A DNA stretch of 64,000 nucleotides from an uncultured Gammaproteobacteria bacterium (GCA_963699955.1 CAVOVV010000005.1:122001-186000); one strand, 5' to 3'; positions 17,878 to 64,000 are shown, counted from the stretch's first letter. Notes: generated from the letters alone by a model not told the origin. Numbers and translations: made by a program.

Positions 17878-18924
17878 ATGTCCAGCGTGTCTATGCGACA
17901 GATGCTGGAAGCGGGCGTCCATTTCGGACACCAGACCCGCTTCTGGAACCCGAAGATGGCCCCCTATATCTTCGGTGAACGCAACCGAATTCATATTATC
18001 AACCTGGAGCAGACGCAGCCGCTGTTTGCCGCGGCGATGACATTTATTAAGCGCGTCATCGCTGATGGCGGGCGAGTGCTGTTTGTGGGCACCAAGCGCT
18101 CGGCGCGCGATGCGATCGCGGCCGAGGCGGCGCGCTGCGGCATGCCCTATGTTAACCAGCGCTGGCTGGGCGGGATGCTTACCAACTTCAAGACCTTGCG
18201 CCAGTCGATCAAGCGCCTCGCCGATCTCGAGGAGCTGACCGCCTCGGGTGCGATCGAAAAGCGCGGCAAGAAAGAAGCGACCATGTTGCGCCGCGAGATG
18301 ATCAAGCTGGAAAAGAGCCTGGGCGGTATCAAGCTGATGGAATCGCTCCCGGACGTGCTGTTCGTGGTCGATGTGGGCCATGAGCACATTGCGATTCACG
18401 AGGCACGCAAGCTCGGGATTCCCGTGGTCGCGATCGTCGACACCAATTGCACGCCCGAGGGCATCGATCATGTCATTCCGGGCAACGACGATGCGATGCG
18501 CGCGATACAGCTGTATACCAACGCGGTCGCCGAGGCGGTGATCGAGGGTAAGTCCTCGGTGCCACAAATGGCCGTAAGCGAAGACGAATTCGTGGAACTC
18601 GATGAACAGGGCAACCCGCGCCGCAAGCCTGGCCGCAGCGCGCGTCCGGGACGGCCGCAGGCGCCCATTCGGCACCGCAAGCCGGCGGCGCGTCGTGGGC
18701 CGGCCCCTCCGGCCGCGGCCGCCGCGCCGCCGCCTGCTCCGGGCGCCGAGGCTGCTGCAGGCGCCGAGAGCGTCCCGCCGGCCGCGCCGCCTGCCGAGGT
18801 CAGCGACGCAGAGCTCGACATCGATGATACCGTGGACGTCGCACCGGCCCAGAGTGCGACCGCCTCGGTACGCCGCCGACCGGCGCCGGGCGCGACCGGC
18901 GCCAGGCGCGGGCAACGCCAATGA
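17878..18924 (+). CDS. rpsB: 30S ribosomal protein S2 with a ~100-aa Pro/Ala/Arg-rich C-terminal extension
   Basis: [36 protein letters not shown]... is canonical S2 through about residue 245, followed by a low-complexity basic tail. GAGG RBS at 17866-17869. Confidence 0.9.
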
Positions 18925-59403: not shown

Positions 59404-61140
59404 TCAGCTGAGCCGGTAGTGGCGTTCAGCGTAGTAATACAGCGGTCGCCAAAAGGCCCGATTGATCGTAACCACAAACAGGCACATCGTGGTGATGCCG
59501 AGCACGATGCGATGATAGTCGCCCGCTGCGGTCGCCGTGGCGATATAGGCGCCAAGCCCCTGAGCGCGCACTTCGGTGCGGCCCCAGCTGGCTAGCTCCG
59601 CGACGATGGCCGCATTCCACGAGCCCCCCGAGGCGGTGATCGCGCCGGTCACGTAATAGGGCATGACCCCAGGCAGTGCGACGCGCCGCCACCACAGCCA
59701 TCCGCCGACGCGGAAATTCTGCGCGGCGTGCCGCAGCTCGGCGGGCATGGCGGCGGCGCCCGCGATCACGTTGAACAGGATGTACCACTGGGTCCCGAGG
59801 ATCATCAAGGGGCTCAGCCAGAGATTCGGGCTCAGCTGCCAGGCCACAATGACGTACACGACCAGCGGAAACAGCAGGTTTGCCGGAAAGGCGGCGAGAA
59901 ACTGCGCGACCGGCTGCACCCACTGCGCGACGCGGGGCCTGAGGCCGATCCACACGCCCACCGGCACCCACACCAGGCTGGCCAGCGCGATCAACACCAC
60001 CACCCGCGCCAGCGTGAGTAAACCCAACACGCCTACTTCGCGCAGCTCGGCCAGATTGGTCCCCGACCACAGCGCCTCACCAAGCTTGCGCAGGGCGAGC
60101 GTGCCGGCGATCAGCAGCAGCGTCATCCAAAGGGCGCTGCCGATCCAGGAGTGGCGCGCGCGGCGCGGGCCAGCGCGCGCTCGCGGCGCCGCGCGCAACG
60201 GCAACGCCCAGCTGGTCCAGCGCACCAGGGCGTAAAAGCTGACCGTCAGGCCCTTGATCAGGCGGGAGCGCCGCATCATGGTCAGCGCCCAGGAGGGTGG
60301 GGGCTCGGCGCCCGGTTCCTGCTCGGCGCGAAAGCGATCCACCCAGGTGATCATCGGGCGGAACAGCAGTTGGTCATACACCAGAATGACCAGGGCCATG
60401 GTGGTGATCGCCCAGCCGATGGCCTGCAGGTTGCGCTGCTCGATGGCGAGCGCAATGTACGAGCCGATACCGGGCAGCGCCACGTGCGTGTGGCCGACGC
60501 TGATCGATTCCGAGGCGACGACGAAAAACCAGCCGCCGGACATCGACATCATCATGTTCCAGGTCAGGGCCGGCAGCGCAAAGGGCACTTCCAGCTGCCA
60601 GAACCGCATCCACGGCGTCAGGTGGAAGGAGGCGGCCGCCTCGGCGAGCTCGGTGGGTACGGTGCGGAGCGATTGGTAGAAGCTGAAGGCCATGTTCCAG
60701 GCCTGGCTGGTGAAGATGGCAAAGATCGCGGCAAATTCCGCGCCCAGCACACGTCCCGGGACCAGCGCCATGAAAAACACCACGCTGATCGAAATGAACC
60801 CGAGGATCGGCACCGACTGCAAGATGTCGAGCAGCGGCACCAGGAAGCGCCCGGCGCGCGGGCTCTTGGCGGCCCAGGTGGCATAGGTCAGGGTAAACAC
60901 CAACGACAGCGCCAGGGCGGCAAACATGCGCAGGGTGGTGCGCGCGGCGTACTCGGGCAAATGCGAGGGCGCCAGCGACAGCGGGGTGGTGTCCAGCTGC
61001 GAGAGCGGGGCCAGCAGGCCGCGGCTGGCCGCGGCCAGGAACGTGACCAGACCAATCACCACAATCAGCGCGAGCGTATCCCAGCGCGTCGCGAACTCGC
61101 GGATAAAGCCAAAAGGTTGGGTGCGGTCCGCTCGAAGCAT
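59404..61140 (-). CDS. ABC transporter permease with duplicated (fused) transmembrane domains
   Basis: 578-aa polytopic protein with two BPD-type permease halves. It is separated by 15 nt from the ATPase gene. No substrate-binding-protein gene is adjacent. Confidence 0.8.
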   Translation of the reverse strand: MLRADRTQPFGFIREFATRWDTLALIVVIGLVTFLAAASRGLLAPLSQLDTTPLSLAPSHLPEYAARTTLRMFAALALSLVFTLTYATWAAKSPRAGRFLVPLLDILQSVPILGFISISVVFFMALVPGRVLGAEFAAIFAIFTSQAWNMAFSFYQSLRTVPTELAEAAASFHLTPWMRFWQLEVPFALPALTWNMMMSMSGGWFFVVASESISVGHTHVALPGIGSYIALAIEQRNLQAIGWAITTMALVILVYDQLLFRPMITWVDRFRAEQEPGAEPPPSWALTMMRRSRLIKGLTVSFYALVRWTSWALPLRAAPRARAGPRRARHSWIGSALWMTLLLIAGTLALRKLGEALWSGTNLAELREVGVLGLLTLARVVVLIALASLVWVPVGVWIGLRPRVAQWVQPVAQFLAAFPANLLFPLVVYVIVAWQLSPNLWLSPLMILGTQWYILFNVIAGAAAMPAELRHAAQNFRVGGWLWWRRVALPGVMPYYVTGAITASGGSWNAAIVAELASWGRTEVRAQGLGAYIATATAAGDYHRIVLGITTMCLFVVTINRAFWRPLYYYAERHYRLS

Positions 61141-61218
61141 GGGATGCCGATCGGGCTGGTTTATAGTGGCGCGCAGTATACGGGTTCAGCACGGGCGGAC
61201 CGACCCTCGGGGTGCCCT

Positions 61219-62214
61219 ATGGCGCAGGAGACTCAGGTGACCGAAGAGCGTTGCGGTGGCATCGCCCCGCACGCGCGCGGTTTTGATTCGGCGAACCCGC
61301 TGGCCGAGCGGCGCACCTTGTGGGTGCTGATCCTCACCGCGATCACCATGGTGCTGGAGATCGTGGCCGGCTGGTGGTACGGGTCGATGGCGCTGCTGGC
61401 CGACGGCTGGCACATGAGCTCGCACGTCATCGCCTTGGGCCTGGCGGTCGCGGCCTATGTGTTGGCGCGGCGCCTGCGGCGCGATGATCGTTTTGCATTC
61501 GGCACCTGGAAGATTGAAGTGCTCGGGGGCTACACCAGCGCGCTGCTGCTGGTCGGCGTGGTCCTGTACATGGCCGTCGAGTGCCTGTCGCGATTGCGAA
61601 ACCCCGGTCTGATTGCCTACGACCAGGCCCTGGGCGTGGCGTTCCTGGGACTGCTGGTCAATTTGGCCTCAGCCGGCCTGCTCGCCGGCGCCGCAGGCCA
61701 CGACGGCGATGCGGCACCGGGCCACGGGCACGCCCACGAGCATGGCCACGCCCACCGCCACGATCGCCCTCCCCAAGTAGACCTCAATCTGCGCTCCGCC
61801 TACCTGCACGTGGCCGCCGACGCGGGCACCTCAGTGCTGGCCATAGGCGCCTTGGCCGGGGGCAAGTATCTGCACCTGGTCTGGCTGGACGCCGCGGTCG
61901 GCCTGTTTGCCTCGCTGGTGGTGGCGGCCTGGGCGTGGTCGCTGTTGCGCTCAACGAGCCGCGTCCTGCTCGACGCGGAAATGGGCGCGCCGGTGGTGGG
62001 AAAGATTCGCCATACCCTGCGCGCGGCGCCCATACCCGTGGAGATCCAGGACCTGCACGTCTGGCGAGTCGGCAAGGGCAGCTACGCCTGCATCCTGAGC
62101 GTCGCCACCAGTGCGCCCGTGAGGCCGGAGTATTTCCGCACCTTGCTGCAGGCGCACGCCGAGATCGTGCATGTCACGGTCGAGGTCAATCCGAGCGTTG
62201 TCGCCTCAACCTAG
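61219..62214 (+). CDS. Cation diffusion facilitator family metal exporter (CzcD/ZitB-like)
   Basis: LADGWHMSSHV and YLHVAADAGTS motifs, six TM-like segments and a His-rich loop GHGHAHEHGHAHRHD. Start at the internal ATG of the 687-aa track ORF. Confidence 0.85.
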   Translation: MAQETQVTEERCGGIAPHARGFDSANPLAERRTLWVLILTAITMVLEIVAGWWYGSMALLADGWHMSSHVIALGLAVAAYVLARRLRRDDRFAFGTWKIEVLGGYTSALLLVGVVLYMAVECLSRLRNPGLIAYDQALGVAFLGLLVNLASAGLLAGAAGHDGDAAPGHGHAHEHGHAHRHDRPPQVDLNLRSAYLHVAADAGTSVLAIGALAGGKYLHLVWLDAAVGLFASLVVAAWAWSLLRSTSRVLLDAEMGAPVVGKIRHTLRAAPIPVEIQDLHVWRVGKGSYACILSVATSAPVRPEYFRTLLQAHAEIVHVTVEVNPSVVAST

Positions 62215-62291
62215 ATTGCGATATTGTCGGCGCTTCGGGACGGAGTAAAACCGCTCCTCACCAGTCCGCAAAGAGCAACAAGGGGACTCAC

Positions 62292-63428
62292 ATGGCTCAG
62301 CCCAGCTTTCAGGGACAGTTCATCTGGCACGAACTGCTTTGCAATGACACCGGCACAGCGACCGCTTTTTACGAGCGGATTCTGCCTTGGAAGGCGCAAC
62401 CCTTCAGCCCCGGCTCGCCCTACTTCCTGTTCAGGTCGACGGCTGGCAATCCCGTGGCCGGCGTGATGCGCCTGTCCGATGAGGCCCGGGCGGCGGGAAC
62501 CGCGCCTCACTGGCGAGGCTACATCGGCGCGGCGGATGTGGATGCCATCGCCGGCCAGGCCGTGGGCCTCGGCGCGCGTATACAGCAGCCCGTGCAGGAC
62601 ATTCCGGGCGTCGGCCGCGTCGCGCTGTTGACCGACCCGGAGGGTGCGACGTTCGGCGTGTATTGTCCGTTGATGAACTCCGATAGCGCGCCAGCCAGCG
62701 CCAGCTTTTCATGGAATGAACTGGCGGTACGCAATCGAGAGGCCGCGCTGGCGTTCTATCAGCGCCTGTTCGGCTGGAAACTGCGTCCACCCATGGATAT
62801 GGGCGGTGGGTTTTATTACCAGACCTTCGGCCTCGGCGATCAGGACTTTGGCGGCGCTTACACGATCCCCGCGGACCGGGCCATGCCGCCGGCGTGGTGC
62901 CCCTATGCCGCCAGCAGCAGCGCCGACGAGACCGCCGGCAAGGTGCTGGCCGCCGGCGGAAAGCTGGCCCATGGGCCCATCGAGGTGCCGGGGGGCGGAC
63001 GCATCGTGCAGTTCTTTGATGCCCAGCACGCATTCTTCGCGGTGCACTCGATGGCGGTCGCCGCGACCACCGGGGCCGGCAAGGCCAAACCCAAAGTCGC
63101 TGCCAGTTCCGCCCGGCCGGCGGCGAAGCGGGCGGCGAAGAAATCCGCCACCAAAAGTCCAAAGAAGGCGAGGTCAAAAATGAAAGCGAAGGCAAAGACG
63201 AAGGCCGCTGGACGACGTGCTGCCGGGCCTGTGACGAAGTCACGGCGCCGGCGTGTGGTGAGGCGAGTCCGAAGAGCCAAACGCAAGGTCGCTCGGGCGC
63301 TACGACGGGCCGCGGGGCCCGCGACGAAGTCGACGCGCCGCCGTGTGGTGAGGCGAGTCCGCAGAGCGAAACGCAAGCTGGTCCGAAAGGTCAGGCGGGC
63401 CAAGCGCAAGGTTGCGCGCAAGAAATAG
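62292..63428 (+). CDS. Two-domain VOC (glyoxalase/bleomycin-resistance fold) protein fused to a ~120-aa Lys/Arg-rich repeat tail
   Basis: FIWHELLCNDTGTATAFYERILPWK and FSWNELAVRNREAALAFYQRLFGWK begin two VOC repeats. From about residue 258 the sequence is KAKPK..AKKSATKSPKKARSKMKAKAK.. followed by two 30-aa units (AAGP(V/A)TKS(R/T)RRRVVRRVRRAKRK...). Confidence 0.7.
   Translation: MAQPSFQGQFIWHELLCNDTGTATAFYERILPWKAQPFSPGSPYFLFRSTAGNPVAGVMRLSDEARAAGTAPHWRGYIGAADVDAIAGQAVGLGARIQQPVQDIPGVGRVALLTDPEGATFGVYCPLMNSDSAPASASFSWNELAVRNREAALAFYQRLFGWKLRPPMDMGGGFYYQTFGLGDQDFGGAYTIPADRAMPPAWCPYAASSSADETAGKVLAAGGKLAHGPIEVPGGGRIVQFFDAQHAFFAVHSMAVAATTGAGKAKPKVAASSARPAAKRAAKKSATKSPKKARSKMKAKAKTKAAGRRAAGPVTKSRRRRVVRRVRRAKRKVARALRRAAGPATKSTRRRVVRRVRRAKRKLVRKVRRAKRKVARKK
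63219..63398 (+). repeat. In-frame 90-bp tandem repeat (2 units) encoding the arginine-rich tail
   Basis: Units at 63219-63308 and 63309-63398. Roughly the first 75 nt of each unit are near-identical, including the shared run gtgtggtgaggcgagtccg. Confidence 0.8.

Positions 63429-64000
<572 letters not shown>

Follow-up and report, generated by a model that had tools for sequence, protein, structure and literature searches.

A tandem VOC protein with a conserved polybasic C-terminal tail in an uncultured gammaproteobacterial lineage

The window analysed here is a stretch of 64,000 nucleotides from the genome of an uncultured soil gammaproteobacterium (3.63 Mb in 7 contigs, 64% GC). Toward its 3′ end, a gene on the + strand (62292..63428) encodes, by translation, a protein of 378 aa plus stop in which a tandem-VOC core of net charge −4 is followed by a long polybasic tail, giving the whole protein a pI of 11.5. 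The gene starts at ATG 62292, because a Shine-Dalgarno-like AAGGGGA (62280..62286, + strand) lies 5 nt 5′ of this codon and because Met1 is invariant across an alignment of 48 homologues; a search of 5.8 billion proteins found 353 homologues in all. The stop-to-stop reading frame extends back to 61581, but the portion upstream of ATG 62292 is an artefact. An antisense frame of 187 aa (62903-63466, − strand), which overlaps both nadC and the VOC core, was likewise rejected, since the region is accounted for by conservation and dN/dS on the + strand. Scanning 61100-64000 for promoters and terminators gave no signal above chance.

The upstream neighbour is a co-directional CDF cation-efflux gene (61219..62214, + strand; Pfam Cation_efflux, E 2.9e-29), separated from the VOC start by 77 nt and thus a possible operon partner. 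Downstream lies the 3′ part of the convergent nadC (quinolinate phosphoribosyltransferase; 63429..63998, − strand; Pfam QRPTase_C, E 2.5e-58), and the VOC stop codon TAG (63426-63428) directly abuts the nadC stop (63429-63431), as the original prediction had described. The CDF-VOC adjacency and the convergent nadC are kept in the related loci L001-L013. The two stops abut in L001-L004, overlap by about 18 nt in L007 and lie 4-99 nt apart in the other syntenic relatives. In a clade ~42% identical to our protein an EamA exporter gene instead precedes the VOC gene, the two overlapping by 4 nt, in one distant clade an FHA-domain protein is encoded about 2 kb downstream, and further clades have other neighbours again. 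The neighbourhood was therefore set aside as a functional clue: it is not decisive, given that the CDF and EamA adjacencies are each specific to a clade.

The core consists of two VOC domains, confirming that two complete VOC repeats precede the tail. Domain 1 (62310..62669, + strand; residues 7-126) comprises two beta-alpha-beta-beta-beta modules, aligns to Rv0577 and matches Pfam Glyoxalase_6 over residues 17-123 (E 4.8e-7). Domain 2 (62700..63050, + strand; residues 137-253) matches Glyoxalase over residues 143-244 (E 1.1e-7), and also Ble-like_N (PF22677), the latter at 25.5 bits against a cut-off of 24.5 and over 23 residues only. Both glyoxalase models score above their cut-offs, as expected of a member of the VOC superfamily, and the secondary-structure pattern of an AlphaFold2 (AF2) model built from the 48-sequence alignment fits the VOC fold with a pLDDT above 85 (88-97 in domain 1 and 85-97 in domain 2). 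A Foldseek search with the core model matched 268 PDB VOC chains at E≤0.001. The closest solved structure is Mycobacterium tuberculosis Rv0577 (3oxh), both by phmmer (E 5.6e-29, residues 7-253) and by Foldseek, where it takes top rank (E 3.5e-22, TM(target) 0.83, 31% identity). The presence of two VOC domains on one chain and the similarity to Rv0577 over its full length place the protein with the Rv0577/KbpA-type tandem VOC proteins (COG3324-like). AbxF (PDB 8stb, 9jt3, 8eo9) comes second in Foldseek (E 1.6e-15, TM(target) ~0.8; E ~2e-9 and 21-23% identity by sequence). The KbpA equivalog model (NCBIfam NF053614) gives 66.9 bits against a cut-off of 250, so that by this measure the core is a relative of KbpA and not an equivalog. 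True glyoxalase I structures fit poorly (TM 0.24-0.33) and rank, together with the extradiol dioxygenases, far below Rv0577 and AbxF, while Ble and MRD structures are absent from the top of the Foldseek ranking. The JGI annotation ‘related to lactoylglutathione lyase’ is thus best read as a fold label, since only the generic Pfam fold model matches. Taken from the Pfam, phmmer, Foldseek and KbpA-model results, the core is a tandem VOC of the Rv0577/KbpA/AbxF branch, and not a demonstrated glyoxalase.

Rv0577 (also CFP32) and Streptomyces KbpA share with our core the single-chain tandem arrangement of four beta-alpha-beta-beta-beta modules, but they are tail-less proteins of about 260 aa, unlike the 378-aa protein described here. 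The window protein, like its type, would be cytoplasmic. Proposals for the biochemical function of Rv0577 and KbpA differ and include an association with neutral-red staining, detoxification of a glycerol by-product and TLR2 agonism (PMC8779077). AbxF, a VOC-fold enzyme that forms the spiroketal in anthrabenzoxocinone biosynthesis, is also tail-less and belongs to an actinomycete biosynthetic-cluster context that is absent around the VOC gene here.

The tail itself (residues 257-378, 122 aa), whose sequence as quoted in the original prediction is borne out by translation, has a net charge of +55, from 25 K and 30 R, and lacks D, E and H altogether. Its first zone (63060..63227, + strand; residues 257-312) is rich in K, A, P and S, with an H1-like composition (14 K, 3 R and no D/E in residues 257-306), and is predicted to be disordered: in the AF2 model it shows a pLDDT of about 38-44 and no secondary structure. 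The remainder is predicted by AF2 to form two Arg-rich amphipathic helices, helix 1 at 63237..63311 (+ strand; residues 316-340) and helix 2 at 63327..63422 (+ strand; residues 346-377), with pLDDT of about 55-78. The hydrophobic moment of helix 1 peaks at 100 degrees and is matched by 5 of 2000 shuffles, that of helix 2 peaks at 95 degrees and is matched by none of 2000, although the hydrophobic stripe is in both cases narrow and made of V, A and L only. An AAGP breaker, which opens each unit of the repeat described below, parts the two helices. Based on the predicted disorder and helicity and on the hydrophobic-moment shuffles, the tail is bipartite, with an H1-like disordered K/A/P/S segment followed by two predicted Arg-rich amphipathic helices. 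The description of the whole as H1-like therefore stands for the first half, where the long, acid-free, K/A/P-rich and disordered character of H1, AlgP and PhaF tails is found in zone 1, but only by composition: the second half is Arg/Val-rich and predicted to be helical, and neither homology to such tails nor short tandem repeats of the KPAA type were found, the KPAA motif being absent from the entire 378-aa protein. No Pfam or NCBIfam model matches the tail. A homology search with residues 300-378 alone, in which 8000 word-sharing candidates were scored for this low-complexity query, returned four orthologues and nothing else, which leaves the idea that the Arg-rich module is common to other domains unsupported, and a regular-expression scan for VRRAKRK found no match elsewhere in the genome.

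The second half of the tail is built from the 90-bp tandem duplication that was originally proposed, on which Tandem Repeats Finder (TRF; period 90 across 63212-63401, 1.8-2.1 copies, 78-87% matches) and direct comparison of the units agree. Unit 1 (63219..63308, + strand) encodes residues 310-339, AAGPVTKSRRRRVVRRVRRAKRKVARALRR, and unit 2 (63309..63398, + strand) encodes residues 340-369, AAGPATKSTRRRVVRRVRRAKRKLVRKVRR; the TRF value of 2.1 copies corresponds to a partial third copy, AKRKVARKK (63399..63425, + strand), that ends in the conserved ...ARKK. The two units are identical at 69 of 90 nucleotides (77%) and at 24 of 30 amino acids. Twelve of the 21 nucleotide differences fall at third codon positions, and the codon differences are 9 synonymous versus 6 non-synonymous. 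This degree of divergence, together with the excess of third-position and synonymous changes, indicates that the duplication is old and has been kept at the protein level, rather than being recent or an assembly artefact. The copy number in relatives, for which a check had been suggested, is consistent: the same two units are found in P0003 and P0004, species-level relatives that are ~90% identical, and a variant of the 30-aa units is present in L001.

Several observations argue for translation and conservation of the tail and for purifying selection on it. At related loci in species-representative genomes, where genes were called by extending reading frames after tblastn rather than taken from annotation, the basic tail stays open in 16 of 16, at about 85-130 residues, despite many indels. 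These loci all come from metagenome bins labelled Steroidobacterales, Steroidobacteraceae, Gammaproteobacteria or Proteobacteria, and the sampled genomes are kin rather than independent observations. Among the 119 non-self homologues listed by the 5.8-billion-protein search, 109 reach at least 300 aa and have a K/R-rich end, and the last four residues are ARKK in 57 of these 109. A few apparent exceptions (P0056, P0084) resemble frameshifted assemblies. Between the window and L001, the Nei-Gojobori estimate of dN/dS comes to 0.078 in the core against 0.118 in the tail; five more pairs that yielded a defined value lie at 0.07-0.09 (core) and 0.16-0.36 (tail).

To gauge the spread and the age of the tail, the VOC core alone was searched against 1.84 billion representatives at 50% identity, and the 147 best clusters were taken, with full-length cores 34-65% identical. 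Among these 147 best clusters 79 stop directly after the core, while 65 have an extension of at least 30 aa, of which 61 are basic, with 25-55% K+R and in nearly all cases 0-7% D/E. On the core tree the tail state requires 8 changes, compared with a mean of 53 when the labels are shuffled, and none of 500 shuffles is as low. One clade of 77 rows contains 74 tailed members even though its cores are only ~37% identical, and the named members of the distant tailed clusters are Steroidobacteraceae bins. Within the order the VOC gene was found in 21 of 151 sampled genomes. Families f1 and f9 have VOC tails of 85-235 aa, whereas the copies in family f24, ~37-39% identical, stop right after the core. 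Relatives in which the VOC domains are followed immediately by a stop, which the original prediction had considered as evidence against it, thus exist in this distant family but not among the close relatives. Parsimony on the core tree and the distribution over families together indicate that the tail is old and was gained mainly once, and that it then diversified in sequence with its charge kept. Its length among relatives varies from 40 to 265 aa and its style from KPAA- and PARK-type repeats through to RRV heptads, the Arg/Val heptad style recurring in several sub-clades. From these comparisons, the conserved property is the dense positive charge with exclusion of acidic residues, and not the sequence, the helicity or the hydrophobicity. 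The claim that the tail fills a former intergenic space is not supported, because the tail is clade-wide and old and because the stop spacing varies among the syntenic relatives; recent read-through into intergenic DNA is rejected on the same clade-wide presence and on the repeat units being only 77% identical in nucleotides.

Tails of comparable composition also occur on other enzymes. A census of our genome based on six-frame reading frames and composition thresholds, which is crude and probably undercounts, found acid-free K/R tails on a GalU-type nucleotidyltransferase (~30 aa), SucD (~65 aa), Acs (~85 aa), an HhH-GPD DNA glycosylase (~40 aa) and AcpS (~22 aa). The extension of ribosomal protein S2 in the same window was considered too, but it is of a different kind, mixed in charge and rich in P, A, R, E and D. 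For SucD, Acs and GalU the tails were then sampled across the family, in 30 further genera. A basic tail of 24-144 aa is present on SucD at 25 of 29 complete loci (29 genera), compared with 0 of 10 genomes in families f9, f10 and f24 of the order. The orthologous Acs has a tail of 38-171 aa at 16 of 19 loci and the paralogous Acs at 0 of 11, and GalU is tailed at 7 of 30 loci, with shorter tails that fall mostly in the closer sub-clade. The VOC tail occurs in f1 and f9 but the SucD tail in f1 only, so that the ranges are nested: VOC is widest, then SucD and Acs, then GalU. Because these ranges differ, the tails on the different enzymes were not gained as one system, and the tailing looks, on present sequence comparisons, like a continuing tendency of the lineage rather than one designed fusion. 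Like most of the orthologous VOC tails, those of SucD and Acs are not amphipathic.

Basic tails of this general kind have been studied in a few other bacteria. In Pseudomonas the KPAA domain at the C terminus of AlgP binds DNA and is located on polyP granules (PMC9239181), and the disordered KPAA region of PhaF binds RNA (PMC12818456). Both resemble the present case in carrying a long, disordered, acid-free K/A/P-rich tail on a folded N-terminal domain, and KPAA-like repeats occur in them as well as in many orthologues of the VOC protein. However, the window tail has no detectable homology to either, lacks KPAA, is dominated by Arg in its second half and is predicted to form helices there; at the N terminus, AlgP and PhaF have a helical or phasin domain where our protein has a VOC fold. 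The basic N-terminal tail of Myxococcus xanthus FrzCD binds the nucleoid independently of sequence (PMC5716589), and the lysine-rich PAKKA tail of Mycobacterium smegmatis Ku modulates DNA binding (PMC3553676). These are likewise lineage-specific, low-complexity basic tails on a conserved domain, but they belong to a protein that works on DNA (Ku) and to a chemoreceptor (FrzCD), whereas the partners here, identified from sequence alone, are a VOC protein and metabolic enzymes. The RRVVRRVRR pattern of the window tail resembles, in composition and periodicity only, the Arg-rich motif peptides, and its helices, unlike those peptides, are 25-32 residues long, duplicated and attached to a 27-kDa domain. 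Arg-rich motif peptides such as those of HIV Rev/Tat and lambda N, and designed amphipathic Arg/Val peptides, become helical upon binding RNA or membranes.

The reading that we favor, with a probability of roughly 60%, is that the tail is a generic electrostatic tether of the core to DNA, RNA or polyP. We rank it first because the dense charge is conserved and because the studied tails of this kind bind polyanions. The argument is one of composition and analogy; neither the Pfam and NCBIfam models nor the tail-only search gave a profile or homology link from the tail to a characterised DNA-, RNA- or polyP-binding domain, and we infer the polyanion binding, the identity of the polyanion and the benefit of co-localisation alike. 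Specifically, the 122-residue tail would hold the core, independently of sequence, on an intracellular polyanion, which could be the DNA of the nucleoid, RNA (ribosomal or messenger) or granules of polyphosphate. For the disordered K/A/P segment we envisage flexible, multivalent binding in the manner of H1, AlgP and PhaF. In this lineage the 90-bp duplication would have added two Arg-rich amphipathic helices and so raised the charge density, and these helices would probably fold on contact with the polyanion. PPK1, two PPK2 and PhaC are encoded in the genome, and the PPK1 and the two PPK2 would make polyP available as a partner. The VOC tail would then be one case of a family habit, given the like tails on the unrelated SucD, Acs, GalU, AcpS and DNA glycosylase. 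It counts against the tether that most of the tailed enzymes (SucD, Acs, GalU and AcpS) have no evident reason to be on nucleic acid, and that the tails were not gained as one system. The more specific suggestion of a detoxifying domain tethered to the nucleoid fares less well. Its first element, polyanion binding, is the most reasonable role for the tail, but a purpose-built detoxifier is weakened by the tails on SucD, Acs, GalU and AcpS. It is possible but not specifically supported, since the Rv0577/KbpA/AbxF branch is without an established detoxifying activity and the tail is common to CoA-handling and sugar-nucleotide enzymes.

Some features of the tail could also be explained if it had no specific partner at all, being a tolerated or weakly useful low-complexity expansion (for solubility, or as an ‘entropic bristle’) or a by-product of a lineage-specific mutational tendency to lengthen genes by K/R-coding repeats. 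The tail sequence and length (40 to 265 aa) drift fast, repeats and indels abound, dN/dS in the tail is 1.5-5 times the core value, and the enzymes that carry tails are assorted, without a common theme, the GalU tails being short and sporadic. However, dN/dS is well under 1 in every pair with a defined value, and hundreds of proteins show stretches of over 100 residues from which acidic residues are almost wholly missing. The tail has also persisted in a clade with core identities of only ~37%, and 57 of the 109 tailed homologues listed still end in ...ARKK. We therefore regard the absence of a partner as unlikely, though not negligible. The tail could instead be a peripheral membrane anchor, with its cationic amphipathic helices and polybasic residues attaching to acidic phospholipids and so keeping the core at the inner membrane, beside the exporter of the upstream gene. 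This would draw on the two significantly amphipathic predicted helices and on the gene following an inner-membrane exporter gene in two clades (CDF in one; EamA, with the 4-nt overlap, in the other). Among the orthologous tails, however, Pro-rich repeats of the K/A/P or PARK type prevail, and these lack a hydrophobic face, so that helicity and amphipathicity are not conserved features; the hydrophobic stripe in the window protein is V/A/L only, other clades have different neighbours, and the SucD and Acs tails are likewise non-amphipathic. Such peripheral anchoring is improbable.

A regulatory role, in which a KbpA-like core would have a Ser/Thr kinase or some other protein as its partner, with the tail tuning the interaction or acting as an autoinhibitor, we consider quite improbable. 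The nearest named relatives are indeed the ‘kinase inhibitor homolog’ Rv0577 and KbpA, and the FHA-domain gene about 2 kb downstream in a distant clade would fit, but the KbpA equivalog score is far below its cut-off (66.9 bits versus 250), there is no linked kinase gene in the window, and a generic role is more in keeping with the like tails on SucD and Acs. It is very improbable indeed that the basic region is made, also or instead, as a separate 82-aa protein from the internal ATG 63180-63182: an SD-like GAGG (63170-63173) lies 6 nt upstream of this in-frame codon, but the Met is kept in the three closest relatives only and is Ile or absent in the others, and purifying selection also covers the part of zone 1 upstream of ATG 63180. 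The lack of conservation of the Met beyond the closest relatives led us to reject this internal start.

Extending the electrostatic tether to the other tailed enzymes gives a bolder and on balance doubtful proposal: the polybasic tails may serve as a shared address label that brings a particular group of enzymes together on a single polyanionic scaffold (the nucleoid or polyP granules), forming a membraneless metabolic or protective compartment in this uncultured Steroidobacterales family. The set would comprise the Rv0577-like VOC protein, succinyl-CoA synthetase alpha, acetyl-CoA synthetase, AcpS, GalU and the DNA glycosylase. With three members of the set acting on CoA or acyl-CoA, such a scaffold could supply acyl-CoA locally.

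As for novelty, no domain model covers the architecture, and in the literature searched we found no description of a VOC protein with a basic tail or of such a tail on SucD or Acs; tailed VOC homologues are annotated only as ‘VOC family protein’. To that extent the original prediction of a new architecture holds, but the arrangement is not rare, being present in 109 of 119 listed homologues and in 61 of the 147 nearest clusters. What is new here is the elaboration of the tail by Arg-rich helical repeats and the family-wide tailing of several enzymes. To our knowledge, basic H1-like tails are otherwise features of a few bacterial DNA- or granule-associated proteins, and not a recurrent accessory on central metabolic enzymes. 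Here, selection has maintained such tails within one bacterial family for a long evolutionary time, on a VOC protein as well as on SucD and Acs. If these tails do place the enzymes on the nucleoid or on polyP granules, they would represent a simple and testable route to the subcellular organisation of bacterial metabolism, and polyanion-driven localisation or condensation could be studied on the tails that nature provides, which grade from K/P-rich, disordered forms to R/V-rich, helical ones. Even if they do not, the tailed proteins form a large unannotated architectural class that domain databases have missed, the VOC protein by itself accounting for more than 60 clusters at 50% identity.

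Basic C-terminal tails are also found on other proteins encoded in the window's own genome (G000, with C2 to C7 denoting contigs). The alpha subunit of succinyl-CoA synthetase, SucD (G000:C4:176473-177546, + strand, outside the window), carries one of about 65 aa. Across the Steroidobacteraceae, 25 of the 29 sampled genera have a tailed SucD (loci L032-L060), with tails of 24-144 aa, and none of 10 genomes sampled elsewhere in the order, from three further families, does. In acetyl-CoA synthetase, Acs (G000:C6:1454899-1457103, + strand), the basic tail measures about 85 aa, and among 19 orthologous loci from the family (L072-L090) 16 retain it; paralogous Acs proteins, approximately 50-55% identical, are without it.

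Shorter tails of 22-60 aa, rich in K/R and free of acidic residues, end a GalU-type nucleotidyltransferase (G000:C2:298550-299521, +), AcpS (G000:C7:~110611-110168, -), an HhH-GPD DNA glycosylase (G000:C6:1567558-1566782, -) and a 176-aa ORF (G000:C4:185349, +). The GalU tail is scattered within the family (7/30). We also considered the C-terminal extension of about 100 aa on ribosomal protein S2 (window 17878-18924, +), whose end overlaps tsf in the sequence ATGA, but rejected it as the same kind of tail because its composition is mixed-charge and P/A/R/E/D-rich. Separately, the last 18 residues of a 62-aa ORF outside the window (G000:C5:15571-15759, +) are all lysine, implying that this 64% GC genome holds a long simple repeat rich in A.

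Two homologues of the tailed VOC protein, P0056 and P0084, have Arg/Pro/Ser-rich, lysine-poor ends that resemble out-of-frame translations of the tail, probably owing to frameshifts in the assembly of the metagenome contigs. Within the VOC gene itself, the codon for Met297 is an in-frame ATG preceded by GAGG at a distance of 6 nt (window 63170-63182), a sequence arrangement that could yield an 82-aa stand-alone basic protein. However, no relatives other than the three closest share Met297, which counts against such a product.

In a clade about 42% identical (L029, L030), the last 4 nt of an EamA exporter gene are shared with the tailed VOC gene (L030 5036-6004 and 6001-7155, respectively), and the same gene run includes a small glyoxalase gene together with a gene for a GH17/GT2 fusion. 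In the window, the gene upstream (61219-62214, +) encodes a CDF cation-efflux protein with a His-rich loop, GHDGDAAPGHGHAHEHGHAHRHD. Each of the 13 closer relatives has this gene next to the tailed VOC gene, which makes it a possible operon partner.
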